This document shows positions 3,922-52,492 of a stretch of DNA of 64,000 nt, in pieces (the first letter of the stretch is position 1; the number at the start of each line of letters is the position of its first letter). The notes under the pieces are model-generated. The model did no database searches. It had not been told where the DNA came from and saw nothing but the letters and a program-made list of their open reading frames with translations. Source of the DNA: Fistulifera solaris (taxonomy: Eukaryota); contig AP026127.1 of NCBI GenBank assembly GCA_030295235.1, forward strand, positions 124,001-188,000, written 5' to 3'. The translations under genes and the position numbers were made by a program.

Positions 3922-6900
3922 TCAGAGGAAATAAAGTGTGTTGGCATATCTTTCGGCGCTAATCGAACCGCCATGATCCGGCATATTTCCCGCCAACTCG
4001 GCTAACTTGTGCGCGTACTGCGTTGGTGCAGGAAGCTTGACGGGACCGGCCCAATTGGCGTAGTTGTGACACGACGACCAAGTAAGGGAGGGAATATCGA
4101 CTTGAGCAAGTCCTGCATCGCGGTGCACGGTAATAAAGCGCACGGGCTTTGGGGTGCTAAACGGCGGAGCTCTTCCATTGATGTAAAAGGTGTGGTGTCG
4201 CAAACCTTGGAAGCCTTCCACCAATGTCCCACTAGGAGAGCCGAATGGCTGCTGTCCCTCCATCGCAAAAAAACTTAGTTGCGATTCGTTTCTGGCAGAC
4301 GGCGTAAGCAAGAGGGACCGAATTTTCAATCTTTTGGTTCCTACGACTGCATCTGCACCGAGTCCTTTTCGAATACCTTTCATTTCGTCTATTGCGTCCG
4401 TAGCGAATGCACCCTCTCCGATTCCATCGCGCCAAATTACGCATGATTTAGGTTTCTCGTGAAGAAGCTTCAGTGCGGCTTTTACTGTTTGTTCCAAGCA
4501 CTCATTCAATTGATATTCTTGGCCCGGTTCTTGAACGAACGTCTTCGTGTACGTCAAAATGTCATTTTCTTTTCGAACAATCTGTACAACTATCGCAGCA
4601 ACAGACGCTTTCCCGACTTTTTCTTTAGTGATAGGATTGAACACACGGGGGGCGTGATAGACATCTATCGCCAACAAGCACAGAAGGTAAAGGAAGCTCT
4701 TTTGGGATTGAAACCCACCAGATACGTCGCCAACCTTTTCCAAAATTTGCCGAGCCACTCCTTGCAAGATGATGTTTGATCGCTTCATGTCACGCGGTTC
4801 ATCATGACGATACGTATTGAAATTCACAAACTAAGAAGGAAAGAGAGCGAAGAAGTGAGCAAGGGATCGAAAAGCAATATACGACGTCTCCTCTTACCTG
4901 AGATATGTAACCGTTCTGAGCTAATATCATCTTCACGACGGGATAATCAGGGTCCATAGAACCACGGGGTTTTGTAAAATCGAGAATAAATACGTTGGCA
5001 GGAACTTTACCAGAAAAATGCTTTTGGACAGCTCCATGATGACTTTTGTTCGCGTCTGGAACAGCGTGTTACGTAAGAAACTACATTATCATTAAAGATT
5101 CGGTGCACTTAGTTCAACACAGACTTACCCACTTTCACCACCTCGTGAGGCTTATTGCCCAAAACGAAACTTTGCATTGTGCCCGTTCACAAGGTCGCGA
5201 ATTCGATCGTACGTGTCCTTGTACCCGCCGCCTCTTCGATCAAAAATGCGCTGCACACCAAAACGACATTCAAAGTCGTTGCTTGAGACGTATTGACATT
5301 GAATTTTGCTTTGCTCAACACCGGTGCCCAATTATCTGCTTTCTCTTTCGGAACTGAAACACCAGCAGCAATAATCGAAGGGACAGGCATGACTTTGCAA
5401 GTGGCATTGATCGGCGATTGCAATGCAATACCCAAGGCGGGCAAAAGACCACCGGCACCGCTGAGTTGTCTGTGCTCCGGGAATTAGATACTCGCGGACA
5501 ACATCAATTGCTTTGTTTCTTTCTTGGGGATTGAAACCAGCAATCATCGGAAGTTTTTCTTTCACTTCGGGGTCCAGTTCATTCCCAGTCACAAGCTCAG
5601 CGGGTAAGAAAATTTTACTCTTGTTTCCGACCTTCGACAACCATGGGCTTCGCACTGGGATATTTCAATTTCATTTTCTTGCGAGTTGCAAAGTATTGCG
5701 TATGAGACGTCTGCGTCCCCGGAATCATTAAGGAGTCTGGACTATGATCGAACAGCAGATCGACAACAGGGTAGCACTTCTTGTCATACGTGGTAATAAC
5801 GGTCTCACCTATCCATGTGCGCTTTGCATTATCCATGTCGGCCTTGGATAAATTACCCTTGGAAGGCGAATAATTGCCTTTGTAAAGGGGCGTCTAGCAG
5901 CGTCGCGGTGCGAATCAGTTTGGCACGAAGATCAATCGTCAAAGTAAGACGAGCCACAGCACTTTTCGTGTTCGACTGTCGCATCAGGTTAAAGTTGCAT
6001 CGGTAGGCTTTGAAGATCTTGACACCCAACGACTGACCATTACGATCCGTTGGCTCGGTAAACGACTGTGGGTCGATAAATTCACGTCCCCATCGAGCCA
6101 TGCGTTCGCGTAAAGCACCTTCCAACGCCACGTTCGCAAACATTTCGAATTCCGCAACTGATGCCGGTTTAGTCACAGAAGTCTCGTCGGAATAGACCGG
6201 TTGATGTCCCTTTGTCGACTTTGCAAAAGTAAAAGCATGAAGTTAGTTTGACTAGCATATGCGCAGGCGCATATACTACAAAACAATGAAACATACCAGT
6301 GCTGCAAAAGCGACTGCTCATCCCGAAAAGCTTGCGTACAATCCGCGACATCGCAAGTCCGCCAACACGACATGTTCTTCGGCAGGATTCCACGCGACCG
6401 ACAATTCTTTTGGGGCCGACAGTTTTTGCATGTGCACAATGCGCATGACATCTCCGTTCGTGGTGGATCCATCACACAAGGTAAGCGGCAATTGATCAGG
6501 TGTCGATAATCCAGGAATGTCACGACCCGACATGAATGTCAAATTTTGAAAAAAGACTACGCAGGAACGGTACACGTGAGAAAGTTTTCGCTTGTTTTAA
6601 TTTCTCTTTCGTTTTACGTACCCACTCGCTTCAAATCTTCAATTTGCTGCGGTGACAGCTGCCGAGCCATAAACAGATCCCAAAACCCTGTTTGAAAGAG
6701 TTGAAAGCGTCGAGTACGTCCATCAATCAATTTGTTATTCTTATCGCGACATTCGAGACTAAACATCCAAAAGGAAAAGCTGGGAGAGACTTGAGCTGTA
6801 ATAAAAGAATGTGCGAAAGTAAGACACGATATTCTCAAAAAGTGCAGAGCGATCAAACTATTCCTCTTCAATACTCATACCTGATAGTATATTCGTGCGA

Positions 6901-7859: not shown

Positions 7860-10800
7860 ATGAGTCGTTCTCATTCCTCTTTGCACGAGGATGTTCGACA
7901 ATTCCTCTTTGAAACGTCGGTGACGCCGGAAGACGTGGCGCAAGTTCAAGGAATTGTCGAAGGCAATTACACAAAGTGTTGCGCATTATGAGCGAGAAAA
8001 TCGAACGTCGTTCCGCTGATCCTGTCGTCGTCTGTCCATAAGAAGACCAAACACACGACCCTCAATGACGCGGAACGCGATCAGTTGATGGATTCTCTGG
8101 CGAAAACGACACACGATCCACGTTCCTATCAGCGCATTTTGTTCGAACGTGCCAAACACGAAAATATTATTGTTCATTTGGGGACCGGAACCGGTAAAAC
8201 GTGGATTGCACTATTGTTATTGCAGCATTATGTCGAACAACAACGACCCATGGTCTTTTTGGTGCCCAGTGTCGCCTTGGCGGTTCAACAACATGCCGTG
8301 TTGAGTGTGCATTTGGAGCAGGTGCAGTTGGCGTGCGCGTATCACGTTGCACCGTGTGGCGGAAGAAACTTCGAGCAAAGTCTTGGTCGCGACCCACGGG
8401 GCGATATTTGGATTTGTTGCGACATTATCCCGATCAATATTCACTCGGGCAAGTCAGTTTAATGATCTTGGATGAATGTCATCATTGTATTGGGAATTCT
8501 CCGTGCTTGACGATTTTGCGAGACTACTATCATACGTTACCACAGAATCAGAGGCCGCGTGTTGGGTTTGACCGCCTCGCCCTTAATTGCCGTCAAAGTC
8601 AATCATACCGAAGAACAATTGACGCAATTGTTGACGCAACTAGAAGTTCAAATGGATGCCAAGATTGTTGCACCGCCGGCCGATGATGAAGATAGTCGTT
8701 ATCACGAACAGGAATGTTCCGAGCATTGCATCCCGTACCGTATGGATAGTGGTGTGTCGACTAGTCCGTTGCCACGGATTCCTGCGAACAGTTTGCATCC
8801 GGCGCGTCTCAAAGAATTCAAGCAATTGGAACAGCTAGAACTCGATCTGGGGCCTTTGCCAGTGATCTGGTATTGTCGATCACTGCAGTTGAAGCGGAAT
8901 CAGTATCAAAACGAAAAACGAGAACAATTTCAAGCGGGCGCAACAATATTTGGAGCGTGTGGCGGCGTGTCGTGAAAACGCATGGGACCAGTCACAAATT
9001 ACAATGCCTCGAACAATTGTTGGAGCAAGAATTGTCGCGGAAGAAACATGCCGTGGGGGTCGTCTTTGTGCAGCGTCGGATCACGGCTTGTGCTTTGGAT
9101 CAGTCCTTTCAGCATCGGAATCATCAACAAAAGAAGAACGACTTGCAGCAAGTCCGCCATGACAAATTCAATGGTCAATTTGCGGATGCGGAAGACGACA
9201 ACATGAGCTGGGAGGGGCTATCACCGCATCAGCCATTGATTCGGTGTTGCAGTATGATTCGAAAGAGCACGGGAAGCCAAATGTTTCGTGCCGGTGCCAA
9301 GCTTTCGCAAGAGGAAATGAATCAACAGAGCGCAGCTAATGGAAGAAGAAGAAAACAACATTCGAAAGACGTTAGATGGATTGCGAAAAGGAACGTTCAA
9401 TGTCCTAGTAGCCACTTCCGTGGTGGAAGAAGGTGTTGACCTTCAAGCCTGTTCGTTTGTAATTGCGTTTGATGCTTTAACGACAATTAAAAGCTACATC
9501 CAAATGAAAGGACGGGCCCGACAAAAGAGCCAAATTTTACTTTTTTGAAAACGATCACGTCGCTGGTTTGAATCACGAAAGACGCAAGCCGCCTGGAGAA
9601 GCGCATTGAGAATGCTGTGGCAAACGAAAGTAGAAAGCAAGAGGAGAATTATCGCGGCAGTTCGTCTGGTCTGGCATTTCTCGATGTGACGCCAAAATCA
9701 AGAGCTAAGCACTGAAGAGCTTTTTGTTCTGCGCAATGGAAGTTACACGGCGGAACTAGGTGCTGTCTTTTTGAATTCGGCCAAATCCTTGTTGTATCGC
9801 TTTGCATTGAGCCAGCCCATCGATTGGGTGACCCGATCATCGAAACGTTCCTTGCAATCTTACTTACCCTTCTTGACGAGCAGTGCAACCAGCTCACACT
9901 ACCCGCTTACTGTGGAGCTGGAAATGGTTTGCGATCCATCTCGCTTCCCGAAACGACTCTCGTTATGCCGAAAAAAGATAAGCAAAGATGCTAGCGCTGA
10001 TCGCGTGCGTTCGATTGCATAAGAATGGGTTATTGTCTCGGCGATTGTTGCCCTTCTCAAGATCCGAACTCCGCCAGAAGATATTATCTTTCGTCAAGCC
10101 AAGGCCAAATCAGAATGATGTGGCAACTAGACCGACAATCTTTTCATTTCCGTCTTTGACTGACAAAACGACTTGCTACATTAATATACTTTGTATGGAA
10201 GGGGAGAGAATGGAAGAAAACGCGCAAGTCGTTTGGCAATTTTGGTAAATCTTTGGCCTTAGTTTGCTTCGAACCGTTACTGGAACCTAAAGAGATGTCT
10301 GTCATGCATCATGACCATCCTCAGTTTGGTCGATTGGCCTGTTCTATGAAAAAAAGCCGCCCGATTCAGTGCACTAAAAGCCAGATCGCGCTTCTTCGTG
10401 AATTTTTCGTAGTTCTTTTCAACGCTCGCTGGAAGAAACGGACTAAGGATGGTGTCTTCAAACTCCAGCGAATCGAACGAATCAATGATAACTCCTTCCT
10501 ATGTGCTGGGCTGCATAGATGATCAGCACAACCTGGACTGGATGTACATGCAAAAGATCGTTGACGAAAGCAAGCGTAATGCTGCTGAGTTGAAAGCTGC
10601 GGCCCAGCAAGTGTCGAAGGGGCAGCCCTTTGTCCGTCCTCGGCTCTGGATTCCGGATCATGATCCGATGAGCGTTTTGTAGTGTATGGCGGCGGGTTTC
10701 AGAAAGATAGTGAAAAAGTTGATGACAAAAATGAATCGATTTTCTGTCAATACTGCTGGCAACTTCCCATCACTATCTTGCATAAAGATGGCAGCTCATG

Positions 10801-12463
10801 CGAGGCAGCGACCACGCAGAAGCTTTTGAGTCCAGCATTCCCATCTGCCCTTTTTTGAAAGGACGAATGCTCCCAAAATCTATATTCCATGAAGCCCCTC
10901 TGGCAGGCGCGCAGTGTATTTCGAGGCTTTGCTGTTACCGCAGTCGTTGTACTTCCCTCGAGCGAATACAAACAACGCGAGCATTTGTTGAGCATTGTCG
11001 CAAGCACATTCCCATTTTGGCCCAATGTCTCGAAGAAAACAGTACAGATGCGGAGATCGCTACTCTTCTGACAGCCGCTAGTTGTGCAGGCGAAGATAAT
11101 TATGAACGCTGGGAATGGTTTGGCGATGCAGTCTTACAGTTGGTAATGACCGACGTTTGTTTCCGATCACCACATCTCCGACCCTGGATGCGCGGCTTTC
11201 ACGAAGGAGATCTGGATGTGATTCGGTCCGCATTGTGTTGCAACGATCGTTTGGAAGAAGCTTGCCTCATGCTGTCCATCGATCGATTCCTCTTCACCTC
11301 CGAGCTTGCTCGTGGTCAATGGACCCCGCGCGTCATGAAGTTGGTGTTCAGTGAAAGTACAAGCTCGAAAAGTAGCAGTAAAGCACCCCGAGGCAAGATT
11401 CTGGCCGATGTGATAGAGGCTATACTCGGTTTGGTGTATATGCGTTGCGGTGGCTATCCAGCCGCCCGTCCGGCCGATGAGCTGGGCTTGACGATAGAAT
11501 GGGATCCTTCCATATCGTACACTGAAGCCATGAATGGAAGCCGCTCCCCTCCTGCATCGTTGGAACAGACTATATCTCAGGGGACTGGTTATATTGCGTT
11601 TACGCGCCCGGCTTTACTGCTCGGGCGTTCACCCATCCCACTTGTTTGGACGTTCATGTCGCTGCCTCACGAACGTTTAGAATGGATCGGTGATGCTGTC
11701 TTGGCGTTGGCTGCCCGGTTGTGGATATTTGATCAGTACAGCGACAAGGAGGATGGCATGTCGGTCGGACGCATGGTGACTTTCGAAAAGCAGTTTGTTT
11801 GCAATTCGACTTTGGCATTTTTGGCCTGTCGAATGGGATGGCACCGTCACTTCACGTCATCACGATGCTACCTTACCAGGTCGTATCGAAGCGTATTGGG
11901 CCAGTGTGAGCCGAGAGAGTCGCGGCATTTGGAGCACACAGCCTCCCAAAGCGTTGGCGGATGCCGTGGAAGCCGTGTTAGGAGCCGTCTTTGTCGACGG
12001 AGGATGTGCGGCCGGAGTGCAAGCGGCGCACGAACTACTGCGTCCTTTTCTTGAAACAGTCATTGGGAACGAGGATCAGATCCGTCACCCGCAACAAGAG
12101 TTGTTGGAATTGTTGGGAGATATGGCAAAGATATCGGTAAAGTTGCGTGATGCAGATGAAGACGAGGACGATAATGGGCAAGACACATTTGGTCTGACTG
12201 CGGTTGCTACTATTTCACTATGGGGAGTCCCTGTTTTGACGTGCGTCGCCGACCATCCGCCCCGCTGCGACACATCGAGCTTGTGCTTTGCTATTGTCGA
12301 TTCTGGAAAAGGACAGTTCTTGGATGCAACAGTTGCAAGCGATTCGAAACAAACAGATTGGGTTGCCGAAGAAACAAGTGACAGAATCTTTAAAACGTCA
12401 GAAACAGTAATTGATGTACATAAAGACTTCTATAGTCCTATTGAAAGTTTCATTCCATCTTAG
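7860..12463 (+). CDS. DCR: Dicer (DExH helicase, helicase-C, DUF283/dimerisation domain, platform/PAZ-like region, RNase IIIa, RNase IIIb, possible dsRBD)
   Basis: PRSYQ, HLGTGTGKT, LVPSVALAVQQ, LDECHH, LGLTASP, VVFVQRR, VLVATSVVEEGVDLQAC, SYIQMKGRAR; SAKSLLYRF and ALIACVRLHKNGLL (DUF283); NYERWEWFGDAVL...LADVIEAILG; HERLEWIGDAVL...LADAVEAVLGAVFVDGG. Start inferred at atcATG 7860; many frameshifts; exact ends uncertain. Confidence 0.93.
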
Positions 12464-25604: not shown

Positions 25605-27528
25605 TTAGGCCGCCACTTCTTCTTCATCCTCGTCCTTGATCTTGTCCGTCTCGCCGTGTTCTTCATCGTCATCCGGAAGACCCGTATGTTCCATCAAGGC
25701 CGTCACCTTGGCCTTGAGGAATTCCATATCATCCGGGAGATCCTTCATGGTAAGACGGACGCGTTCGCGACGTTCAAAGCACGTATTGAGAGTCTGCTTG
25801 CCGTCTTTGAAACGCCACCAGTACGCCAAGTAACCCAAGGACAAGATGAGAACCACCACCAAGAGCGATCCGAGCACCGTCAGTCCCTTGCTACCGTCCG
25901 AAAAGAGGAAAGAGATACCCAAACAAATCGCAGGAAGGATAACAAACATGACGAAAATGTACAAGAACGGGAATCCACGCCACTGACGGGTGGCTTTTCC
26001 GAGCTTGACGAGCGGCGTGAATGGGCATCGCGCGCATAAAGGGGATTGGGTAAAAGATGGCAATACCGGTAATGTTAAAGAACAAGTGGCACATGGCGAC
26101 TTGCAAGGACTCGGTTCCTTCCGTGACCATGGAAGCCAACAAAGCCGTGACGGTAGTACCAATGTTGGATCCCAACGTCAAGGGGTACATTTGGTTCAAA
26201 TGAATCGCACCAATTCCCACGAGAGGGGTCAAGGCGGAAGTGACGACGGACGAGGACTGAACCAAGATGGTCAAACCGCAACCCACGGCAATCGCCACGT
26301 ATCCATTGACATTGGTGGCCTTGTGCACGACACGGGTCGACAAGCCGAGCAACATGCGCTGCAAGACATTCACCAAAGCCAACAAGCAGGTAAAGAGAAT
26401 GACAATGGAGATGAAGAAAACAACTCCACCAGAGACCTTGTCGTCCTTGGCAGTGGCATTGGGCTGGAAGAAGGAGGGGCAGGTGTTCTTGTCGCTGTTG
26501 CACGAAATGAGACCAACTTGCTTGCACTTGGAGGCGGTGGGTTCTCCTGGCTCGCAAAGAACGGGATAAAAGCCATCACCGTCGTCACAAGAGCCGGTTC
26601 CCTTGGCCACGGCAGTAATCAACTTGCTGTTGGACTTGATGATGCGTTCTCCGAGCGGTGCAACGAACTTCTTGACGGGTCCTTCCCAAGTTTCACCATC
26701 CGACGTCGAGGCATTCTTGACCATGGCTCCCGTCAAGTGACGAAGATAACCGGTTGCAATCTCGAGGGGGAAAAGGACGCACACGGTCATGTAGTTGAAC
26801 ATATCGTGCACGGTGGCACCGGCAAAGGCGCGTTCCAACTGATCCGCATCTCCCAATTGACCCAAAGACACCAACGTGTTTGTGACGGTAGTACCAATGT
26901 TGGCTCCCATGACCATGTAAATCGCTTGACGAACCGAAATGGCCGAACCGACGAGCGAGACAATGATGGAAGTGGTGGTCGAAGACGACTGCAACAAGAC
27001 CGTCGACAAGATACCCACCATGAGACCAGCGACGGGGTTAGTTTCGTCACCAAACAAGGCACCGGCGGTGCAGCCCGTCATGACCTTGGCGCTGGTGCCC
27101 ATCAATTCGAGACCAAAGAGGAAGAAATAGAGGAAGAAGCAGACGACGAGGAATCCTCCAAACGCGTAGCCCCATTCCGTAGGCGAGCGTACGCAGCAAG
27201 CTTGAAAGACTTCACCCCAGGTGGCATCGGCCGGTTCTTCGTCCGCGTTGAAATCATCATCACCAAAGTGAATCGATCCAGTAGGACGATCCTTGCGCGA
27301 GGTGATGGGCTTCTTGGGTTTGTTATCTTCGTCCGACTGTGTTGTGAAGAATGGGGATGTGAGAGCGAGGAGCGAGCGCAAAAAATAAGCAACAGAGAGA
27401 AGAAGCGAAAGATAGTGTATTTATCAAGAAATAACCGTTTTCGAATAAAAGAAGCAATACGCTGATGGAAAGCCCGCGCTGAAGAAGCAAGAACATTAGC
27501 CACGAGAGCAGATACAATCACTTACCAT
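25605..27528 (-). CDS. Sodium-dependent phosphate cotransporter (SLC34/NptA family), copy 1
   Basis: QSSSTTTS, GANIGT, RAFAGATVHDMFN, QSSSV, LGSNIGTT motifs; ATG 27528 followed by intron 27337-27525; one frameshift near 26010. Confidence 0.93.
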
Positions 27529-31051: not shown

Positions 31052-32864
31052 TCATCTTTCATCATCGGCACTCGCTTCATCATCCTCACTGTCCGGCAGA
31101 CGCGTATGTTCGATCAGCAAGGCAATCTTGGCCTTGATGTACTCCATATCCTTGGGGAGATTTTGCAACGTCAACCTAACGCGTTCGCGTCGTTCAAAAC
31201 GATCGCTACAATACCGTTTTCCGCCCTGGAAACTCCACCAGTAAAAACCATACGCACAGCTGATCACCATGATTGCTACCGAAAAGGAACCCAGAACAGT
31301 GAGCCCCATACTGCCGCTGGAGAACAAAAGGAGAGACCGAACGAAGTTATCGGGAACAAAAAGAACATGAAACCAATGTACACAAAGGGAAAGCCCCGCC
31401 ATTGCCGCGTGGCTTTTCCGAGCTGACGAGCGGCCTGTAGAGGAAAGGCCCGCATGAAAGGAATAGGATAGAAAATAGCAATTCCAATCAGATTGAACAA
31501 CAAGTGACACAAGGCAACTTGAATGGATTCGGTTCCTTCCGTGACCATGGCCGCCAATAGTGCCGTAATGGTGGATCCAATATTGGCGCCCAGCGTCAAC
31601 GGGTACATGTGATTCAACTTGATTACACCAATGCCCACCAGCGGAGTTAAGGTCGAAGTCACGACCGAAGAGGATTGTACCAGCAGTGTCAGACCACAGC
31701 CAAGAGCCATATTGACATAGCCATTTAGATTGGTAGCTTTGTGAACAATACGGGTCGATGATCCCATCAGCATACGCTGCAAGATATTCAAGAGCGCAAA
31801 TAGGCAAAAGAAGAGCATGACCACGGCCAGTGTAAAAACGACTCCTCCCGAGATTTTGTCTTCTTTAACGGTCGCATTTGGTTGAAAGAACGACGGACAG
31901 GTATTTCGTTCCCGATCGCAGGCAATCAAACCAACTTGAAGACATTTATTATAAGAAGGCTCCCCCGGCTCGCAGAGAATGGGATAAAAGCCATCGCCCT
32001 CTTCACACGAGCCTTCTCCATGCGCAACCGCCGTCAACAACTCCTTGTTGGCCCGAATGATACGATCCCCCAACGGCGCCACAAATTTCCGAATCGGTCC
32101 TTCCCACAATCCTCCGTCGGTCGTAAACGTATGCTGCACCATGAGTCCGGTCAATCGCCGCAAATATCCGGTCGCAATTTCGAGCGGAAACAAGACAGCG
32201 ACGGTCATCATATTGAACATATCGTGCACCGTCGCCCCGGCAAACGCCCGTTCCAGTTGATCCGCATCACCCAATTGCCCCAACGACACAATCGTATTGG
32301 TGACCGTCGTCCCAATATTCGCTCCCATGACCATATAGATGGCTTGCCGCACCGAGATCGCCGAGCCCGCCAACGATACCACAATGCTGGTGGTGGTCGA
32401 AGAGGACTGCAACAAGACAGTAGACATCAAGCCCACGGTCAATCCGGCCACCGGATTCGTTTCATCCCCAAATAAAGCACCGGCCGTGCAACCCGTCATG
32501 ACTTTGGCACCGGACCCCATCAATTCGAGGCCAAAGAGAAAGAAATACATAAAAAACAGGACACCACACAAGCCTGCGGCAGCGCGCATCCACTCTTGCG
32601 ACGTCCGGACACAGCACGCTTCCAAGACTTCACCCCATGTCGCGTCTTCGTACTCATCATCATCATCGTCATCATCCGCGTACGGTAACGAGTGATGCAA
32701 GGACGAATGCAAGTGGTCTTCTCGAATGGGTTTGTGTGTGTCACTTTCCGTGTCGGACTACCAGGATCGAACGGCAGGAATACATGAGAACGAAGAAAGT
32801 AAAGATGCCATACAACACAGAAATACAAGAAAAACACAAGAATAGTCACTGAGAAACTTACCAT
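31052..32864 (-). CDS. Sodium-dependent phosphate cotransporter (SLC34/NptA family), copy 2
   Basis: Same motifs as copy 1; ATG 32864 followed by intron 32758-32861; frameshift near 31320. Confidence 0.93.
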
Positions 32865-38915: not shown

Positions 38916-39030
38916 GTAATTCATTCGTAAATCGTTAGCCATCGTACGGTATGGAGAGCGGAGTATGTTTTGTGTTTTTGTGTTTTGTGTCTCGTGCTTT
39001 GTAAGAAGGACTACAATTCGAGGTAATATG

Positions 39031-39241
39031 TGCGTAAACCTACGATGAAGAAAAGGGTTCACAGAGATTTTATGATTACAAGACTACGGGTTGATAGAAA
39101 AGGAATGAAGAGGCCGACCAGTGAGAGGTCGGGAAGGAACATAGACGAGGTCTAGAGCCGAAGGAACAAGGACCTTAGGTGACGCGTCACTTGAGTACCG
39201 ATTGGTGTCTGATAGGACATGACGCGCTGGAGGGTAACGCA
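39031..39241 (-). repeat. 3' LTR of the Gypsy element
   Basis: Identical by eye to 43995-44205. Confidence 0.97.
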
Positions 39242-39316
39242 TACTGCCTCCAAGGTTCATGACCGAGAGGAAAGAAATGAAAAAAGGGAGAGGAACCTTT
39301 AGAATAGGAGAAAACC

Positions 39317-42300
39317 TCACCGATGATAGGGCTTGAGTTGGCGGATGTTAAGCCGTTCAAGAGTGTGCGCATCGCGCCCGAAAGGTAACTGTACCATTCG
39401 TATGAACAGATTCAATCCGATAAGGACCAATAGCTCGCGTAGCTAGCTTTTTGGGATTGTAGACTAGTTTTAAAACTTCGTCACCAACATGGTAGTCGTG
39501 AGGCAAAGCGTTTGCGATTAGCAGCGTTGAGACGCTCGCATCAACGAGCTGTTGCCGATTTTGCTGAATCGTGATCCAGTCGGCAATCACGGGTAGATCT
39601 AAGATCATATCGCGGCCGAAAACTAAAGAACCCGGAGTTGCTTTAAGTCCGCTATGAAGCGAGGCGCGAATAGCGAAAACACAGTTTGCCAGCGCAGTGT
39701 CAACCATTTTGGTTGCAGTAGACATACTGTCAATTGGGTGGAGAGTTTCCAATGTACGGAGAGTGTTTCCGACAGTTTGATGCATTCGTTCACAGATGGC
39801 GTTTTGCAGTTGGAGTTTTTGGACCTGCTGGTGCACGTCTGATTCGGTGACGATTGAGTAATGACTGGAAACCAATACCAAGAAATTCGCCGCCTTGGTC
39901 GTATGTACAACGCAAGGGCTTAGGATAACGAGAAAGCCACGTATTCTCAAAATGCATGGCGACATGTTCCGATTGTTTATTGTCGATGCGAACGAGTTCG
40001 ACAAGGTTTGTGACCGGATCGATCATTGTAAGTGCTGAAAATGTTGTTGTTTGACCACCTATTGTAAGTTCCCATGGACCGATAAGGTCAACATGGACTT
40101 CACGCCAGGGGTGAGCGGAAACTTCGGCTGGCGAGATGGCCGAAAACCACGAAGCGGTTGTTTGTTTCGTTGACAATTGTCGCACTTTGAAACCAAATCC
40201 TCAATCTTTGTTCGAAGATCAGGGTTGTAAAGATGGAGTCGCATGGTGTCAAAAAGACGCTGATTGACCGAGATGGCCGAGAGCGGTGTGATACCAAAGG
40301 ACGGCTTGGTGAAGAAGCTCGTCGGGAAGATAAATTTTCCAAGGTTTATTTTTCTTCGGAAGAAAACAAGTAAGATACAAGTCGGGTGCGAGCAGCTGAT
40401 CCGCAAAATGCTCGGGATGTTTCTCACGAAGGGCTTTCAATCGGGTGTCCCGGCGATTGAGCCTCGCCGAATTGTGTTGTAGTCGAAAGTACAAACGGGG
40501 CCGATTTGAAATCGGGTAAATTGACGAAGCAATCAAGAAGATCGTCATCGTCGATGGCCATGGAATAAAATGAAGTAGTTGCTGCCTCCTTGCAAGAAGC
40601 AGGGGATCCTTTGAGTGATTCATCAAAATCAAGACGCTGAAAGAGCGTTGGCAAGTTCGTTTTCACTGCCTTTGACGTAAGAAAGTTTTACCGTAGTCTT
40701 CGAGAAAAAAGACGCCAACGAGCGATTCGTTGAGTAGTTAATGTAGTTAAAACATTATTAGAATGATCGGTGTAAACATGAATGTTCTGACATCCGTAAA
40801 GCATAGTACGAAACTCTTTGAGAGTCTCTCACGATTGAAAGAAGTTCTTTCTCACCGACGGTGTAGTTACGCCATACCGAAGTTTAACTTTTTAGAAAAG
40901 TAAGCGACAGGGGCGCCTTCCTGAAAAATAGCGGCACCCATTTGCTTATCGGACGCATCGGTGTAGATGTGGAAAGGTTTGTTATGATCGGGATACCGAA
41001 GGAAAGCATCTTGTGCAAGTAGCGCTTTGATTTGATCGAAAGCGGCAACCATTTCCTTGGTCCATTTGACTTTTCCGGTCCCGCCGGAGACGGCCGTAAG
41101 AGGGGCTAAAATGTGAGACCGGCGAGGGTACATATCACGATAGAAATTGATTGCTCCAAGGAAAGAGCGGAGTTGTGTGTGAGTTACCGGCTGTTTGATC
41201 GCCAAAAGGCGTCGATCTTTTGCGCCAAGGTTTTAATCCCTTGGGAGTAAGCCAATGGCCAAGCCAGTCTGTCTCTTGGACACCCCACTCGCATTTGGAG
41301 GGGTTGACGGTGAAATTGTTGTCCTGTAAAATCGTGAGGACTTTGTCTAAAGACGCGAGATGGTCTTCCCAAGAGGAAGAAAAAACACCCACGTCGTCGA
41401 TGTAACAATTGACTTCGTCGAGGGCTCGGAAAAGCGTTTCCATGACTTCCTGAGCAATGTCTGGCGCTTGCGACACTCCCATAGGGAGTCGGTTATAACG
41501 GTAATTCCGAAAGGTGTCGTGATGACGCATAGGTCTTTACTGGCTTCGCCGAGTTCGAAGGTGTAATAGTGCATAGAAACGTCGATTTTCGACATAAAGG
41601 CATAGCCGATGCGGCGAGATAGGACCTCGGAGATCTTTGGAAGATGATAAACACGTCGTTTTATCACCTTGTTGAGTTGCCGAAAATCTGAGATCCATCG
41701 GACTCGTCCATCTTTTTTCGGAATAATGAAGGACGGCGCGAGCCAACGGGAGGCACCGCATGGAGTGAGGACACCGAGTTTGACAAGAAACTCGAGCTCT
41801 GATTTAAAAGTTGGCGCATGGGTTCGAGAAACCGCATACGGTCGACAACTAAAAGGTTTGGCGTTTGGATCGATCTCAAGAGAGAACTTTTTCTTGGCAT
41901 AACAACCGAGCTTCCCAGAGAAAAGTTTTTTGTATTTTTTGAAAAGCTCGGCGAGCTGAAGTTGTTGAGTGGCACTGAGGTGCTTCTGATTTCTTGCAAC
42001 AACGAAAGGATCGACTTCTTCGTATTTAGACGGGAGAATATCCTTGGATTTATATCCGAGTTCGTGAGCAAGTTCTTCAGCGATCTGCGAACGGATTGTC
42101 CGATTCCGATGCAAAGCTAGCCGAGAAGGCTGTTGGATGAAAATAATTCGGGGGATGATACGGAATCATGTATTCGTGCCATTGAACAGTCATGGTAGAC
42201 GATTGGATGTCGATTCCAAGTGTTGTTAAAACATCATTTCCGATAATAACATCGTAAAGAGAATCATTATTGTTATAGACCATAGCTGTATGGGCCCGCT

Positions 42301-43964
42301 CACTCGGAGTGAACTAGTGAACTCGGGAAACATGATTTCCTCGAGCATGACTTCATGGCGATGAACTCCGACACCATGAATGCCGAGAACCTTTGTGCCC
42401 GGCACCGTGGTGCACTGGGTCTTCTTTGGAAGAGCGCGACGATTAATCATCGTGCGATCGGATCCGCTATCGAATAGCACGCGAAGAGGTTTATCATTCG
42501 CTTTTTTCTGAATTAGTTTGCACGACATAACAGTAGTTGGACGAACACGTTCGTTAACAAATTGAAGACTATTATTTGGTTTAAGATTAATGTCTGTTTC
42601 TCCTGAAAGGAAATGCAAATCACAGAGAGCCGTAAAACAGTTCGGAACTCCCTCCTCATTTGGCTCCGGATTCGGAAACATCTGATTCACAGAAGAAAAA
42701 GAAATGAGGCCGCATTCGGCGGAAAAAGCGTGAGATGCTGACAAGTAATCTGTTGTACCAAACACGTCAGTTGTGAACATACCAGTAAGGTCGTCAATGT
42801 CAAAGACATCATCCATGTTGAACTTGGCGGCCGTGTCGTCAAGATTCATGGCGGAGTACGCGTCGTTAATTGCCGCTGACTTTTCCATCGTCCTCGGGGG
42901 CAATAGTTTCGGTGACAAGCGTTTCCGCTTCCGATGTCCGTGTCCATTGTCTCTGCCACGTGAGTAGCGGTAGAGTTTTTACCGGACCAAGCGACCTTCA
43001 ACTTGGAGGTCACATTTTGGAACAAGCCTTTTGCTTTGTTGGGATTCATGTTGCATTGGAACCACTTGTGGCCCTCCTTGCCGGCTTGCTTCGGGTGAAG
43101 CTCGCAATCGAGTTTCGGGTCCTGTTTGTGGTCCCAAGCGTAGCTATTCTGGATAGCACGTTCGATTTGCGCATGGGACATGCGGGGTGGTATTTGTGTT
43201 TCGCCGCGAGAATCCTTTTGGGCGGGCGATGTCCGGAGCCCGATGAATTTTTCTGGCCGTTGCCGGACGGTTTTGCGGTCGCCTGAGCGTTGTTGTTCGC
43301 GGTTTTGGCCTGTGCAAGGCGCTGGAGAGTCGACATATAGTTTTTGATCTCAATGGTGGAAAAATCCGTGAGCGCCGTGGTGCCCTTAAAAGCGATCCAG
43401 CGATCGCGCCAAGCCGGGGGCATGGAGTTGAAGAAAGCGGTTTTGAAAGCCAGCTTCATCGAGGGCTTTGTGAGGCCCGGAAATACGCTCGATGCGTTGG
43501 TTTGCTTGCATTAAAAGCAGGTAGAAGTTGTCGACGGGGTACCCGTTCGTTGGAAACTCCGGGTTACGGACTTCCTCGACCAAGCGGGCTTGGTGTGTGT
43601 CCTGGAAAAATTCCTTGACGTAAAGTCGGACGACTTCGTCAAAAAATTGTTTCGACTTGTTGAAGTTGTTCTGAGTGAGAACCTGGGTTTCAACGCTCTG
43701 ATAAGCAGATGAGTAAGTGTTGCTGTCGAGCGTGCGCCCGAAAACGATCCAGCAGCTCTTAATGAACTGGTCGCCGGTGTCCACACTGTTGCGGATGCCG
43801 TTGAAAACACGGTCGAGGTGCGACATGAAATCGCTGAAGCTGTGTACGTCCTGAGACAAATACGGGAAGGCAAACTCGTAGTTCACTCTTCCAAGTGACC
43901 ACTTGATGTTTCTGGTCGGAAGCGGGCGGGCTTCCGGGTTAAACATTTTGAAGTCAATCTTCAT
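39317..43964 (-). CDS. Gag-Pol polyprotein (frameshifted)
   Basis: Gag from ATG 43964 with CELH..H.W..C knuckle; protease LFDSGS; RT RWISDFRQLN, RLPMG, YIDD; RNase H YTDASD; integrase HVDLIGPW, YDQGGEF, CERMHQ; ends KPYHR* at 39317. Confidence 0.92.
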
Positions 43965-43994
43965 GGTTGGTGTTTGGGGAGAACAAGATCTTGA

Positions 43995-44205
43995 TGCGTA
44001 AACCTACGATGAAGAAAAGGGTTCACAGAGATTTTATGATTACAAGACTACGGGTTGATAGAAAAGGAATGAAGAGGCCGACCAGTGAGAGGTCGGGAAG
44101 GAACATAGACGAGGTCTAGAGCCGAAGGAACAAGGACCTTAGGTGACGCGTCACTTGAGTACCGATTGGTGTCTGATAGGACATGACGCGCTGGAGGGTA
44201 ACGCA
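43995..44205 (-). repeat. 5' LTR of the Gypsy element
   Basis: Identical by eye to 39031-39241. Confidence 0.97.
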
Positions 44206-44268
44206 ATATGGACTATGGACGATAGACGATAGACGATAGTGAATAAAAGAAAGGAACGAGGACGATGC

Positions 44269-45480
44269 GCTACCACACATGGCTCAAACCGTCCCACTTG
44301 GCTTATTGTTTATTCATGGGAGTTCTCGATGGGAGTTCATCTTTGAACTCCCACGACTGGTGGGAGTCCTTTCTTGGACTCCCACGACCGGTGGGAATCC
44401 TTTCCCGGAACTCCCACGACTGGTGGGAGTCCTTTATCAAAACTCTCTCGAACCTTTTACATTTCATAGAATAATCCAAATAGGCTCACAATTTCATTCT
44501 CAAGCTTTTCCTCACCGTAGGGCAAGGCATAGTGATCACTCGTCGATTTTTTGTTCAACCATGAACACAGCCCTTTACAACAATAGTCTCTCGAAGACAA
44601 CAACAGTCTCTCGCAGACACAACTTACTCTCTCGAAGGCAAACAGCGCTCTCGCGCAGGCAAGCCGTCTTTTGATGACAAACAATGGTCTTTTGAAGACA
44701 AAATTCGTCCTTCCGCATTGACGTACCATCAGTCTTTTCGACTGCCATTCCCCCACAGCGGACACACCGAACGACCCGTTCGACATCAGCTTTCAGCTTG
44801 AAAGCATGTTATTATCATTCACACGAACCGCGCCTGTTCATACCTTTCATTTGCTGTTTATTCAGCCCGTTAACATCGCAACGTCGCTTCAAAGCGCAAC
44901 ACGACGGTCTCCGTCTACCCAAATCTAATGATGGATCTAGTATCTAAATCGTAGAAACAAGCTTTCATAAGCGTACTTATGTATTTATTACAAGGAAACG
45001 CAAGTCTTCTCGACTCGGCTTTCGAAGCCACACCGAATTTTCTTTTGAATCGTACCCATTTGGGTCGGGCGACACCCTAGCTCATTAGCATGAATGCAAC
45101 CCCTTTCGTTCTTTCGAAAAACAATTAAATGTTTCTATACAACCAATTCCTCAAGAAGGAGAATAAATGAACATGTTTTTCATTCGAATCAGAGAGGCAG
45201 CATCGTCTCTCGTTCACGCAACAAAAGTTGCTACCGAATAGCGAATGTCGCACTCAGTGCTGCTGGTGTCGACATGGCTCAACCAATCAGAATTCATTTC
45301 TCCTTTTTAAATCCCTGGATAACTCTGTTATTCATCAATCCATCGACCACGTGTCTGTTTCAGTTCTTTTTCGAACGCTCGTCCTCACGGACTCGATGAC
45401 ATTCATTTCGTCAAAACGCCGAAAATTCGATTATTTCGTTTTCGTGCTGACTTCGACACTCGTGTCAACCGCACGCGCAA
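44269..45480 (+). repeat. Left arm of ~1.2-kb inverted repeat
   Basis: Reverse complement of 48561-49782 with scattered substitutions and homopolymer differences; mirrored ORFs 44457-44786(-) and 49262-49594(+) are nearly identical. Confidence 0.97.
44345..44435. repeat. Three tandem 31-32-bp units, each an 8-bp-stem hairpin
   Basis: actcccac-gac(t/c)g-gtggga(g/a)t starting at 44347, 44378 and 44410; mirrored at ~49616-49706. Confidence 0.9.
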
Positions 45481-47099
45481 CGCGCACTATAATTTTGAAT
45501 TTTGAATTCAATAATTGCCCTCCGTTTAAACCAATCAGAATGGTCAATGCGTCGAGGCAGTACAGGCAACGCCTACTTAAGCTTTTATATTTGCTTTTAT
45601 GTACCTGTCCGGTACCCAATCACCTAGATCTTTGATCTACTCGAGAGCAAACTAAATTGCCTTTCTACATCAATACTGCATGTGGTACTCAAGAATTCTC
45701 GAAATTCAACTGTATAGACAATACTAGTTGTTCTTCAACTTTGATCTTCACATTAATTCCTCCGGAATTGAGTTTTACTCTACGGTACATTGTACACAGG
45801 CACGGACACGCGACATTCGATGTCGCCTCGTCGCCGCCGCTTTTTTTTCTTTCAACTTACTTCATTGCAAGTTTCGCTCATCTCTCCGAGCCGATGATTC
45901 TTTCATCAGTCGCATCACCCTTGTGAACAACCAGCCTTAAGGCAACTTTAAAAGCAAGATCCGCTTGCATACTTCAGTTGCACTGCAACAGACGCGATAG
46001 ATATCGCCACAGAGGCAGGACCTCGCACAACATGTTTACGATGTTTTATTTTGCGATATACTCGGTCATCAATATCGATCAATCGTTCATCCTGGAACTC
46101 ATTCCAGCAAAAAGCCAGTCGTACGCCGACCTTATTGCGGTTTTCGCAACGGTTTACAGAAAGCCAACTGCATGTCAAACTTGACCCCTTGTCGCCGCGC
46201 GAGCGACCTATGATGGGCACCATCATTTACCCCACAAAACGAAGCTCAGCTTCCCATACTCTCTGATCTTAGAGAACAAAATAACGTTATTAAACAAACG
46301 TTTATCCTATTCCGCGCTTGAATAATATTATCTTAGCGATGCGCTACGAATTTTTTCTAACGATCAAGTCATCTCGAATACTCGTTTCACCTTCGAGCCA
46401 ACGAAGCAAACCCTTGGCGATTATCGCCATAACCTTAACAAGGGTCACATCAAAGATTCCTTAACTTGCTCAAGAAGCAATGGGAGATCTCTTCCGCCAC
46501 CTCTACGAGGTACCTTTAGCGTAAAAATGCAAAACTTTCCAATTCTTGGAACTGTCATTATACTTGACAAAAAATCTATAATTCAACATAGCACAGTGCA
46601 TTCGCACGCGCTCCCTTGTGAGCTCTAAGGCAAAACCGCATCGTCGGCCAATCCTTCGGACCTTGACTAATAGGTTTTCTTTTCTTTAAAAAAAAAAAAA
46701 AAAAAAGACCATAGCCACTCACGAGATACTCGATATCCCAAACCTTACAGAACTTCGTTCATTCAACAAACTATCTACTCGATAGTACGTAAGGAGCACC
46801 CTAGCTTCTATTAAAGTCGATTCAATCAACCAATCCATCAAACAATCGCGATAAAGCAAATCTTGCGCAACACGCACTTCCGCCAAATGCATGGCGACAT
46901 GAAGGCAATTCACTTGCTGTTTATCACAAGCTCACTGCAGCTTACCAAAATTACACTACGCGTGTCAATTATATTTATTAAAATATTTTTAACCCTTCTG
47001 GTCCCCATGCTAATCATGACCATAACTTTACTCGGCTAAGGTTACACACTGAAAATTCAGCCACCCAGCGCAAGTCGCTGCATCCTCCGATTCGAGGAC

Positions 47100-48560
47100 G
47101 TCCGAGTACTACTCTACGACATTATTGCCGACGCATCAACGCCGGCCAGACTTCGCGTAAGTCGTCTAAATCCGGTTCCGGCGCAGATTGCCCTGCGCAA
47201 AGACACAAAAACAATCCATGGTACCCGACATAATCGATCGGCTCGATCATTTTGTCACCCTACCGCCTTCTAGGAGGTGCAGTTCGATTCTCGCTTATCG
47301 AACACCCCGCCAAGCCAACCTGAGGGACGCCCAGTGTACACTTCAACGCGGTCTACAGTCTGGTGAGCCAAAATGGCCCAGATATCAACAACTTTTGCTC
47401 GCTCAAACTCACTTCAATGATCAACGCCCCGCACATCAATGCACCAATATTTTATTGTTTATTGCTTCCAGCAATCTTGATCATCTGTCACGACAGAAAC
47501 ACTCTCAAACGCAAACATTGCAATACAAACGATCAGTCGTTGCTCGCGACACACACAACTCCATACGAGTCCTTAGAGACCGAAACCGAACTCTTCATCC
47601 CGAAGATTTATACTCCATTAACAATTATTTTGTTGGCCTTCGGCCTTTGTTTTCGTTTCACGAAAAATACCAATTGCATACCTTGCAAACCTACGAGCAC
47701 CGCTCTGCATAATTCATTTCCTCCAACAAAGCTTCAATAGCAATGGAGGTCATCTTCCTCGCGAAGTAGCCGCAGGTGATAGAGCACGTCCACTCTGGAC
47801 CTCATTTTTTCATCGACCTTCGGTCGTCCTTTTGTTATCAACAAACCTTTCATCGCGCGCCGATGCACACCCTCAGATCCCAGTCACGCACCTGACTGTA
47901 GAGTCCAGTACAATCTGACTCTCCTGTATCACGTCATACACACCGACAAGAGGAGGAGTAACTTATGACTTACAACTTACGACAACAGTACTGAGCTTAC
48001 CGGCAACTGTTTTCAAAATCTACTTTCCAACTGTCCCATAACGACATCAATGGTCGTTGGTCGTTCCACGACTGTAAAAACCCCAAGGGAAATTCACTCT
48101 GTGAATGTATGCACCAAGTAGTGGGCAACACACTGCGACTATGACGCTACTTGCCACCGCAACTGGAAGTACTTCTGGTAAAGACATGGTAGATACGGCT
48201 CTATCAAACCTTATGTACGCCTTTCGAGCGTCTCTACAAAGTGGGCTTAAACCCACACCAGATTCTTTGGTCTATGAAAGAGGCCGTCGCTGACTGGATT
48301 TATATCCAACACCATTGTCAATGCTTTTTGACAAACCGGCTTATCACTTATCAAGCCAACAGACAACGTTTCTCCTACGACTTGGTCTACCAAGTCGGAG
48401 ATCAAGTTCTCAAACTAAGTCGATAATCCGACTAAATTACAGCCCTGCGCACACGGACCATTTACCATAGTCCCAGTCCACACGAATGGTACAATCAGCA
48501 TTCGCCGTAATGCCTTTACAACAGAACGCATCTCTACACGACGCGTCAAAACCCTTCCGC
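47100..48560 (+). pseudogene. Decayed Gypsy pol remnant (protease C-terminal region + integrase; RT/RNase H not detected)
   Basis: Colinear motifs matching the neighbouring element: LYDIIA, HPTAF, GHLPREV, HVH.DLI, DPVTHL, CECMHQVVGNTLR, MVDTALSNLMYAFRASLQSGLKPTP, YQVGDQVLKL, GPF, HTNGT, RRVKPF. Confidence 0.85.
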
Positions 48561-49782
48561 TTGCGCGTGCGGTTGACACGAGTGTCGAAGTCAGCACGAA
48601 AACGAAATAATCGAATTTTCGGCGTTTTACGAAATGAATGTCATCGAGTCCGTGAGGACGAGCGTTCGAAAAAGAACTGAAACAGACACGTGGTCGATGG
48701 ATTGATGAATAACAGAGTTATCCAGGGATTTAAAAAAAGAGAAATGAATTCTGATTGGTTGAGCCATGTCGACACCAGCAGCACTGAGTGCGACATTCGC
48801 TATTCGGTAGCAACTTTTGTTGCGTGAACGAGAGACGATGCTGCCTCTCTGATTCGAATGAAAAACATGTTCATTTATTCTCCTTCTTGAGGAGTTGGTT
48901 GTATAGAAACATTTAATTGTTTTTCGAAAGAACGAAAGGGGGTTGCATTCATGCTAATGAGCGAGAATGTCGCCCGACCCAAATGGGTACGATTCAAAAA
49001 AAAAAAATTTCGGTGTGGCTTCGAGAGCCGAGTCGAGAAGACTTGCGTTTCATTGTAATAAATACATAATCACGCTTATAAAGGTTGTTTTTCTATGATT
49101 AAGATGCTAGATCTATCATTAGATTTGGGTAGACGGAGACCGTCGTGTTGCGCTTTTGAAGCGACGTTGCGATGTTAACGGGCTGAATAAACAGCAAATG
49201 AAAGGTATGAACAGGCGCGGTTCGTGTGAATGATAATAACATGCTTTCAAGCTGAAAGCTGATGTCGAACGGGTCGTTCGGTGTGTCCGCTGTGGGGGAA
49301 TGGCAGTCGAAAAGACTGATGGTACGTCAATGCGGAAGGACGAATTTTGTCTTCAAAAGACCATTGTTTGTCATCAAAAGACGGCTTGCCTGCGCGAGAG
49401 CGCTGTTTGCCTTCGAGAGAGTAAGTTGTGTCTGCGAGAGACTGTTGTTGTCTTCGAGAGACTATTGTTGTAAAGGGCTGTGTTCATGGTTGAACAAAAA
49501 AAAATCGACGAGTGATCACTATGCCTTGCCCTACGATGAGGAAAAGCTTGAGAATGAAATTGTGAGCCTATTTGGATTATTCTATGAAATGTAAAAGGTT
49601 CGAGAGAGTTTTGATAAAGGACTCCCACCAGTCGTGGGAGTTCCGGGAAAGGATTCCCACCGGTCGTGGGAGTCCAAGAAAGGACTCCCACCAGTCGTGG
49701 GAGTTCAAAGATGAACTCCCATCGAGAACTCCCATGAATAAACAATAAGCCAAGTGGGAAGGTTTGAGCCATGTGTGGTAGC
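48561..49782 (-). repeat. Right arm of ~1.2-kb inverted repeat
   Basis: Reverse complement of 44269-45480. Confidence 0.97.
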
Positions 49783-52492
49783 AGACGAAGAACAAGAACT
49801 TCAACCTTGAAACTCTCATTCTTCATTTTTCACCTTTGACTGTACAATTTCTATCTTGGAAATTTCGCCATCGAACCTCACCGAAGAACATCGGAACATA
49901 CCACGTATTCTTCAATAGTGACAAAAACACCGAAGACAAACCGCACTATTGCCCTACTCTCTATATAAATCGTTCCAGCTACGGAGAAGCCGAAAGGGAG
50001 TCACCGAAAACCGAAAATCCACCACCTTTTTCTCCGTTCTCGCAAGCTTACTCCATCGATCCATCGATGCCACCTCTTACTTCCTTTCATAAAATAAAAT
50101 AATCCGCTTCCCGTTTGATTACACTTCCCGAATAACGAAAATATGCCAGCATCGTTGCCCCAAGCGGCTACCCCGAAAAAGTTCGAATGAATTTGGACAT
50201 GAACCAAATTGTTTACTTCTCCACGCCACCGTTAAATTCAGATCGGTGGCAAACGGAAACGAGCCAAAACAATCGAATAAATGCGTTCAATTGCAGGTGG
50301 TCGGAAAGGAGAATACCTTTCGTCGAAGTAGCTGCGAAATAGGAGCCATTTCAATTGTAAATAGTGCGATCTAATGTTAAAACATAATTCATCTACAATC
50401 ACTATTCGCCTGAGGTATAGGGAAGCATTTGATTGTCCACCGTTCATGCAGCCAACTAGGCGCTTTATAGGCCTGACGTTCGAGAGTGCCTAAAACTGAT
50501 TGCGACTATTGCACGGGCAAGCTTTTTCATCCAAACGAATTTATCGTTGCGAATTTTGAAATCTGCCATGCTTCAACCATGGCGTAGACGCAGCTTTCGG
50601 GTCATTACCTCGAATTAGAGCGCTAACACAATTTTCTCACTTTTCGGCTACTCTTTCATACCACAATCGCATAATTAATGTAGAGAGGCTTGGACCCAGC
50701 AACCACAACGGATTTAAAGAATGAATGGAACACTCGAAATTCCATGGAGCTCGTGATTGCTTGGATCCCCCTTTCTGCACACTTAGAAGCATCTATTCAC
50801 TGCGGAACTGGCAGTAAAATAAGAGCAAGAATCAGTGTTATGTCAATATTGATAGAAAGTTCCACGACGACTCCTCATCACTTACTGGTGGAGATTACTG
50901 TACGTTACTCGTTGCGAGAGATTAATAATAAAGTCTTCCTCGTCAAATGTGGTTTGCGTTTGGTTAAAAGTGTGATTTGGGCGAGAGCTTGAAACTTTTT
51001 ACAACTGAGGTACAGGCGGGAGATACCGTGCTATCAATAGTTTAAACATCCAACTTTGGCTGGTATGCTCGAGGCTAGAAGCTGCTTCCAATGATGAGCT
51101 AATAAATAAGAACCAGCTTTGTCCATGGGCGTATCCTCTTTCGTCGTCGCAGCTCGTGATTGTGGCGAGTTTCGATTGTTGACGCAGCTGGATTTCGCGT
51201 TACTGACGGAATACAAACCTTAGGGTAAGACGCGTTAGCAGTTGACTTTGTACATCTCCGATGCGCCATGGCGTCGATCGCAAATTGCGGTAGGATAGTC
51301 TGGTATAGGATGATTCTTACTCTCAAAAAAATCTGGCATTTTGAGTATCTCTTTCCATACTGACATTTTTAAATTCAGTTTAGTGAATTCCAATAGTGTT
51401 TTGAAACTGCTGATATGGGAACATTGTCAAATCCGATCGATTCTGACACTCACTCACTTTTATCAACTGTTTCTCAGCTTTCGTTTGGAACCACTGGATC
51501 GACGATACAATTAAAGGATTCGGGCGGTCTAACGGCATCGTCGATGGGAAGATTGGCGCTCTTGTTGCATCCTGAAGGCCATCGTAGAACCCATTCCGCC
51601 TTTCAAAAATACGTGTAATGAGGAACGATTTGTTGTTAGCACTCAAAGTATAATATCGAATGTATGAATTTATCGTCGTCGTCGCTCCTTTTGTCGTTGA
51701 AGGCCAAAGCTAACCGGGCGAGCGAAAATGAAGTTGAAAATGGCTAAAAATAATGTCAACGGTACTCAGAAAGTCTACTCAATGACCTACTTTCACTTTT
51801 GCTCGTTCCGTCCTAACCGAAAAAGTGCTCAAATCTGACCATTGGACAGAAAACAGACTGAAAAACGCGCCAGCCAGACTTCCCCCTTCACAACGTGTCC
51901 GCAACAACCCATTGAAATGCAACAAAAACGGATGAAAACCACACCTTTCAAATCAACAGTGATTTGTATTTCCATAAAATGTACCTTTCCTTGTAGCTAA
52001 TGCTCTCCCGGTCACAATGGTGCAAGAATTGTAGAGGATGAGGCGCACTAGTTACGTCAAAAGTCATAAGGGTCAAGGATACTGATACTTTCTTTTCGTC
52101 CACCCCTCGGCCTCGTCCACGTCACGGTGGTCGTCGCCACGTTGCCACAAAAAATGTGAGATGTGAGCCTAATTGAAGGTGGAAAGATCGCCTCACTGGA
52201 AACGCTACTGGTATCGCAAATGCGCAAGGCGCAAAGCCTACGTCCTACGTGGTCCGTAACAGTCGGAACCTGACTACTAAATCTATCTCATTCTTCCATT
52301 CTCCAAAGAAAAACATGAGGAGGAGTCATTTTTTCGTTATTAGTACTGCACAAAAATTCCGATAATTATTCGGGGGCAATTGCACAGGGGCGAAATGCGA
52401 AGCCTGTAAAATTATGGGACTATTGAGTCTTGAGATTTGAGATGTGCCGTCTGCGACCATTATTTCTTTCCTTTCTCATTTCGCAGCGTTCG

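Follow-up and report, generated by a model that had tools for sequence, protein, structure and literature searches.

Non-autonomous retrotransposons of the LARD (large retrotransposon derivative) and TRIM (terminal-repeat retrotransposon in miniature) types keep direct long terminal repeats (LTRs), replicate through RNA and are supplied with proteins in trans. Ginger1 and Ginger2 transposons have much shorter inverted repeats than those considered here, an intact integrase-type transposase and no reverse transcriptase (RT). The subject of this work is a unit of 5518 bp in the genome of Fistulifera solaris, in which two complete 1.2-kb LTR units (TGCGC...GCGCA) stand in inverted orientation around a 3.1-kb interior. 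It occupies positions 44266–49783 of a stretch of 64,000 nt (GenBank assembly GCA_030295235.1, contig AP026127.1, positions 124,001 to 188,000 of the forward strand); this whole stretch is called the window below, and all coordinates refer to it. Ty3/Gypsy elements of diatoms have been placed in GyDi groups (Maumus et al. 2009, PMC2806351).

The unit is like a Ty3/Gypsy element in having LTRs with TG...CA ends, a short terminal inverted repeat and a 5-bp target duplication; its pol remnant is also colinear with an element of the protease–RT–RNase H–integrase (PR-RT-RH-IN) type located 60 bp away. On the other hand, its LTRs are inverted, both its termini are the same LTR end, and it has no gag, no recognisable primer-binding site or polypurine tract and no open pol frame. 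With LARD and TRIM elements it shares long LTRs around a non-coding interior reliant on trans proteins, but its architecture cannot regenerate through standard strand transfers; as to the traits of a LARD-like family, the non-coding interior is present, while only diverged short pieces of the interior were seen in metagenome contigs, among the matches listed. Like Ginger1 and Ginger2, the unit has inverted repeats at its termini, ends of the TG...CA type, a short duplication of the target and ties to Gypsy-type integrases; unlike them, it contains no Pfam family and, by similarity to the neighbour's pol, no more than remnants of an RT and of an integrase C-terminus, uses whole LTRs as arms and has a single known copy.

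An older retrovirus literature on intramolecular integration exists, mostly in subscription journals. Products of autointegration (‘suicide’ products) have been described as inversion and deletion circles of Ty1, of Arabidopsis SISYPHUS and of retroviruses, and for plant and yeast elements the DNA of virus-like particles is documented to include products in which one LTR lies beside a piece of the element that is inverted or truncated (PMC7197481). The unit resembles these products in an LTR end precisely joined to an internal site of the element itself and in inverted LTRs around part of the interior; however, they are dead-end extrachromosomal circles, whereas the unit is chromosomal and linear, with two LTR ends and a target duplication. 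One copy of a guppy foamy-like endogenous retrovirus has been mentioned with an inverted LTR, the mention giving no junctions, duplication, empty site or mechanism (PMC5210030). In the full-text literature searched, which takes in few subscription journals, no Gypsy-type insertion was found that is chromosomal, has its LTRs inverted and comes with both a target duplication and an empty site; apart from work on DIRS elements and on autointegration, the topic was touched on in passing at most.

One aberrant complementary DNA (cDNA), inserted once, would account for everything seen at this locus. With moderate confidence we favour one insertion event, carried out by an integrase, of a faulty product of reverse transcription, which came from an already non-coding Gypsy-like lineage and had an LTR end joined internally.

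Structure of the unit and its empty site

The left arm (44266–45479; TGCGCTACC...CGCACGCGCA) is a complete LTR unit and the reverse complement of the right arm (48562–49783), an LTR unit of opposite orientation delimited by repeat search, blastn and alignment. When the unit was compared with the window by blastn, 44269–45480 matched 49782–48561 in reverse complement with 97.47% identity over 1224 columns; in the repeat search of the window the inverted repeat was broken into 8 gapless inverted blocks. The 1.2-kb inverted repeats of an initial annotation, made from the letters alone, were thus borne out, and its description of the left arm as LTR-like (TGCGC...GCGCA) applies to the right arm too, where the outer end is 2 nt shorter (GGTAGCA versus GGTAGCGCA in the left arm). 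Similarity between the arms ends exactly at the inner LTR ends, save one extra common base. The unit therefore has the same LTR end twice at its outer termini and the other LTR end twice at its inner termini. Of the four LTR boundaries, three or more lie precisely at an LTR end and abut unrelated DNA, and each observed joint is one of an LTR strand ending in CA to foreign DNA. LTRs in direct orientation were not found: the arms are reverse complements, and blastn of the unit against the window gave only the self-match and a 28-nt internal repeat, with no other copy of an arm, direct copies included.

The duplicated target site GACGA is present at 44261–44265 on the left and at 49784–49788 on the right, and both copies are seen in the sequence as well as at the empty-site joint described below. 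A target-site duplication of the 4–6 bp range is combined here with TG...CA ends (GACGA on both sides and single in the empty allele; TGCGC...GCGCA), in agreement with the ends and the 5-bp direct repeat noted initially. A (GACGATA)x3 microsatellite lies a little to the left of the target site, at 44218–44238, and the GACGA motif is locally common. Without the empty allele, this abundance would weaken the argument from duplication.

The empty allele came from metagenome data. Four runs from two studies (X1 to X4) contain 6–12% of the sampled window words, a share too small to point to a habitat or strain, and their contigs were placed on positions 43000–51000; runs X2–X4 may derive from the window's own source sample. 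A contig of X1, a wetland metagenome, joins 44260 directly to 49784 (record 8, 5305 nt, depth 10.9). It skips 5523 nt, which is the unit plus one GACGA, and 5 letters at the joint fit either side. The contig continues through 1217 nt of the right flank and has 56 nt of window sequence on the left; its loose end before 44205 is identical to 38995–39024 of the window. Thus an empty allele with a single GACGA, which the initial annotation had suggested looking for, does exist, as one contig in one run.

A second insertion helps in reading this contig. Positions 39031–49783 of the window hold two insertions with 60 bp between them, a neighbouring Gypsy-type element coming first and the inverted-LTR unit second. 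The neighbour (39031–44205, minus strand) has 211-bp LTRs identical to each other and its own 5-bp target duplication, ATATG, with copies at 39026–39030 and 44206–44210. It is also absent from the X1 contig, where a single ATATG is kept. A joint of this kind cannot be created by assembling 31-letter words, and a chance paralogue is unlikely, because the X1 haplotype is empty at both insertion sites. We characterized this haplotype as a real pre-insertion allele from another lineage. As the joint contains a single GACGA, the inverted-LTR unit entered whole and duplicated 5 bp of the target. The retroviral-type integrase signature that had been proposed for it thus held: the unit acts as a single insertion whose ends are precise and of LTR type and whose target duplication is 5 bp long. 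Among the matches listed, there is no contig that spans one of the four junctions of the filled allele; these contigs leave most of the arms without coverage, and the result speaks neither for nor against it.

Some metagenome contigs resembled the interior. Among the matches listed, such diverged pieces were record 13 of X2 (15 differences in 187 nt) and records 5 and 6 of X1 (6 differences in 104 nt and 4 in 150 nt); these pieces, 89–97% identical, show that the interior has relatives and occurs in more than one version. Another X1 contig has the outer end of the arm, together with the preceding ACGA (loose end before 44262), next to a flank other than that of the window; a further copy, an LTR family related to this one or a target preference common to both could explain it. 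When JGI metagenome contigs were scanned for exact patterns, a 22-mer at the outer end of the arm and a 22-mer at its inner end gave 0 loci each. With these scans and blastn in the window taken together, no second copy of the unit, inverted or direct, was found.

The neighbouring LTR begins, in its own sense, with TGCGTTACC; it shares 8 of 9 bases with the outer end of the unit, TGCGCTACC, and the one-base difference is that reported initially. This likeness of LTR ends and the neighbour's own 5-bp duplication indicate that a related integrase specificity is present in the genome.

Two further features of the arms were seen. A 28-nt exact direct repeat (44345–44372 and 44408–44435, spacing 63 nt), mirrored in the right arm, sits among short palindromic GGGAGT...ACTCCC units near the outer end and resembles U3 enhancer-like repeats. 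Read outward, the outer ends of the arms (44266–44275 and 49774–49783) carry a string of 9–10 nt that may resemble the complement of the 3′-end of a eukaryotic initiator tRNA-Met, as a primer-binding site would. If this likeness holds, each arm would consist of an LTR plus a primer site, as plus-strand strong-stop DNA does. No tRNA gene was detected in the window by ARAGORN.

A decayed interior in a young insertion

The interior (45480–48561) holds a decayed pol remnant on the plus strand, without gag and most of the protease region. Its 3.1 kb have stops in every frame and no open pol frame. No Pfam family was detected in six frames read through stops, the sole weak match being to one domain of unknown function (E 0.08); rve or another integrase family was not detected in these frames, and neither was a tyrosine-recombinase family. 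A domain search with 21 open reading frame (ORF) fragments of the interior gave chance matches below threshold only. The unit had been called non-autonomous, and an interior full of stops with no detectable domain agrees with that.

What remains of pol became visible in comparison with the neighbouring element, whose pol is frameshifted, yet protease, RT, RNase H and integrase are still detected in it as domains. In a tblastn search with the neighbour's read-through pol, an RT-like remnant appeared at 46037–46297 (plus strand; 30.5% over 95 aa, E 8.3e-5) and an integrase C-terminal remnant, spread across three frames, at 48076–48505 (plus strand; E 7e-10, with blastn identity of 60.5% over 458 nt, E 2e-22). 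The weak matches are colinear: nucleotides 1840, 2060, 2521 and 3334 of the neighbour's pol correspond to window positions 45834, 46037, 46450 and 47119, and 4191–4530 to 48091–48505, the matches at 45834, 46450 and 47119 being marginal. Of the pol domain order PR-RT-RH-IN the interior thus shows no more than a weak, colinear resemblance to the RT and the integrase C-terminus of the neighbour. Judged by this colinearity, the leader, gag and most of the protease (the first ~1.5 kb of a full element) would be missing. The derivation of the interior from Gypsy pol, as initially annotated, holds in kind and is partly confirmed by the colinear RT and integrase similarity; no Pfam family was detected, and the decay goes far beyond what was implied.

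Signals of replication were searched for as well. There is no TGG-type primer-binding site after either inner end; a polypurine tract was not found before the right arm (the last 15 nt are 33% purine versus 60% in the neighbouring Gypsy element); and leader/arm complementarity of at least 9 nt, of the self-priming type, is absent. A 154-aa ORF across the inner boundary of the left arm has no homologue in a protein collection (proteins of 84–270 residues). On the plus strand the left arm contains CCAAT at 45283 and then TTTAAA at 45306, and the right arm TATAAA at 49077 and AATAAA at 49186 and 49737. These promoter and poly(A)-like motifs are ambiguous, as they would give opposite LTR orientations relative to pol. 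Other features suggest that the left arm may be the LTR in normal orientation relative to pol, because no purine-rich tract precedes the right arm, the pol-end motif abuts the right arm, and the outer end resembles the U3 start of the neighbour.

In a MAFFT alignment of 1223 columns, 20 substitutions and 12 gap columns separate the arms. The substitutions are not spread evenly: 16 of the 20 fall into a divergent patch at 44933–45079 (counterpart in the right arm at about 48965–49115), and none of 20000 permutations gave 16 substitutions in a 160-column window. The 1071 columns outside the patch contain 4 differences (0.37%). The two flank haplotypes, that of the window and that of the X1 contig, differ by 5 substitutions and 3 indels over the 1217 nt of right flank. 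As arm divergence outside the patch is about that between the flank haplotypes, the insertion is, on this sequence comparison, young. The interior would then have been non-coding already at insertion, because there was too little time to erase its domains, and the broken pol of the neighbour is still recognisable. On these grounds, the source must have been a non-autonomous lineage served in trans, with an interior that had decayed earlier.

As a second insertion in this intergenic stretch, the neighbouring Gypsy element is likewise young and polymorphic. It too was probably copied in trans, because its pol is frameshifted although its LTRs are identical.

How the unit could have arisen

The insertion of one aberrant cDNA would start from an RNA of a Gypsy-like lineage without coding capacity, reverse transcribed in trans. 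The cDNA would then be rearranged, one LTR end becoming joined to a site within the element's own DNA; integrase-catalysed autointegration, fold-back and joint capture of two cDNA pieces are candidate routes. In a variant, a fold-back product could be filled in and the duplicated part between direct LTRs subsequently lost; in another, the ends of two cDNA pieces could be taken into one integrase complex, with end joining afterwards. The product would be a linear DNA with the same LTR end, inverted, at both termini, which a Gypsy-type integrase would insert with the usual 5-bp staggered cut. Integrases need only terminal bases and, in vitro, accept two like ends; their chemistry demands the CA-ended LTR strand that is seen at each joint here. 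We infer that integrase made the joints, that a particular one of these routes led to the rearranged cDNA and that the event occurred once.

An ordinary insertion is not easily converted to this form, because homologous recombination never alters repeat orientation and deletions in nested copies leave no precise end at the duplication. Recombination between nested copies was rejected on the same grounds: homologous exchange keeps the orientation of LTRs. We rejected also a history in which two elements inserted independently in opposite orientations and a deletion came later; it is at odds with the precise ends and with an empty site that has a single GACGA.

Several points weigh against the single insertion of an aberrant cDNA. 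LTRs made from one cDNA should start identical; therefore the divergent patch, with 16 of 20 substitutions in 152 columns (about 10.5% divergence), needs gene conversion from an unseen diverged copy or else two templates. A clean integrase joint would not predict that the right outer end lacks 2 nt. No normal direct-LTR source copy of the unit's family was found in the sequences searched, and the architecture of the filled allele comes from the window's own assembly alone. Finally, the literature searched contained no chromosomal product of exactly this form, so the route is a construct from known reactions.

The unit might instead be a mobile non-autonomous element, with inverted LTRs as terminal inverted repeats, moved repeatedly as DNA in trans by a Gypsy-type integrase and representing a step towards Ginger-like transposons. 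One-piece insertion with a 5-bp duplication and an empty site would be seen for such an element also, and its termini do resemble those of the resident Gypsy element. The decay of the interior far exceeds that of the arms, as expected if the ends alone matter; interior pieces occur in diverged versions in X1 and X2 contigs, and one X1 contig has the outer end of the arm beside a different flank. Still, no second inverted copy was found, and the diverged pieces fit ordinary direct-LTR relatives equally well. Inverted LTRs give no LTR-promoted transcript with terminal redundancy, so that movement must be as DNA, and we know of no retroviral-type integrase that excises integrated DNA, which counts against repeated movement. 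An intact integrase was not found here: the neighbour's pol is broken too, and the interior has no recognisable integrase domain. We consider such mobility unlikely. The initial annotation had preferred it, with the unit as a possible intermediate between retrotransposon and DNA transposon; this proposal was not sustained, as no second copy, no integrase domain and no evident route of excision came to light. Also unlikely is an ordinary direct-LTR insertion with GACGA in which one LTR was later inverted in place through microhomology between its 5-bp TGCGC/GCGCA ends, the gag region having been lost separately or being already absent; the ends would look intact afterwards. The LTR ends do form a 5-bp inverted repeat, the 2-nt loss lies within this microhomology, as an imprecise breakpoint might, and outer boundaries and duplication would survive, which is compatible with the empty site. 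The divergent patch, moreover, shows exchange after insertion or a mixed origin of the locus. Yet two switches would be needed at exactly these 5-mers, plus a second event removing ~1.5 kb of gag/protease from the LTR boundary, and a direct-LTR allele was not seen.

An assembly artefact, either a fold-back chimeric read or a mis-joined LTR, would fit with the filled architecture being supported by the window's assembly only. A fold-back chimera is hard to reconcile with arms that are non-identical (20 substitutions, 12 gap columns) and separated by 3.1 kb of unique DNA, nor should an LTR placed in the wrong orientation yield an independent empty-site joint located exactly at both outer ends with a 5-bp overlap. 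We regard an artefact as very improbable. DIRS-1 is described with inverse LTRs and a tyrosine recombinase in place of a DDE integrase (PMC3950715), and a DIRS-like retroelement would have long inverted terminal repeats around an RT-bearing interior naturally. We give hardly any credence to this origin here: six frames contain no tyrosine-recombinase family, the interior ends in a DDE-integrase C-terminal remnant like that of the neighbouring Gypsy element, the target site is duplicated over 5 bp, and blastn against the window found no internal region matching the arm termini. Among all these histories, the single insertion of a rearranged cDNA is the one we prefer.

Genomic context and significance

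The window is gene-rich eukaryotic DNA with long uninterrupted ORFs that contain Piwi, RNase III, Na/Pi-cotransporter (two copies), PsbP and PX domains; a look-up of the PsbP ORF in an atlas gave a tentative pointer to diatoms. The two Na/Pi-cotransporter ORFs (25894–27420 and 31279–32757, both on the minus strand) lie 5.4 kb apart with DNA identity of 71–73%; the pair is an old tandem gene duplication. An ORF with a Piwi domain (3925–4830, minus strand) is separated by ~6 kb from an ORF with two RNase III domains (10786–12051, plus strand), and the two look like putative Argonaute-like and Dicer-like genes as near neighbours. This pair is 32–40 kb from the inverted repeat; thus the genome has parts of an RNA interference (RNAi) system that could act on hairpin RNA from the arms. 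Read-through of the arms as a source of double-stranded RNA for Dicer, raised in the initial annotation, is plausible as a prediction.

We characterize the unit as a rare aberrant form of an ordinary element; it does not establish a new kind or class of transposon. If further copies exist, they would bear on the evolution of integrase-type DNA transposons from retrotransposons. If the unit were in fact mobile, it would be a living intermediate towards Ginger-type transposons, and its convergent arms would feed the RNAi genes of the genome. As a single locus, it is a well-documented curiosity: a natural, polymorphic chromosomal integration of an LTR element by two like ends, with the pre-insertion allele preserved. 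It suggests that a rearranged cDNA of the ‘suicide’ type need not be a dead end and is able to enter the germ line of a unicellular alga. If this is true, long inverted repeats, which are sources of hairpin RNA and fragile sites, could originate from retroelements in one step, with a length of 1.2 kb in the present case.

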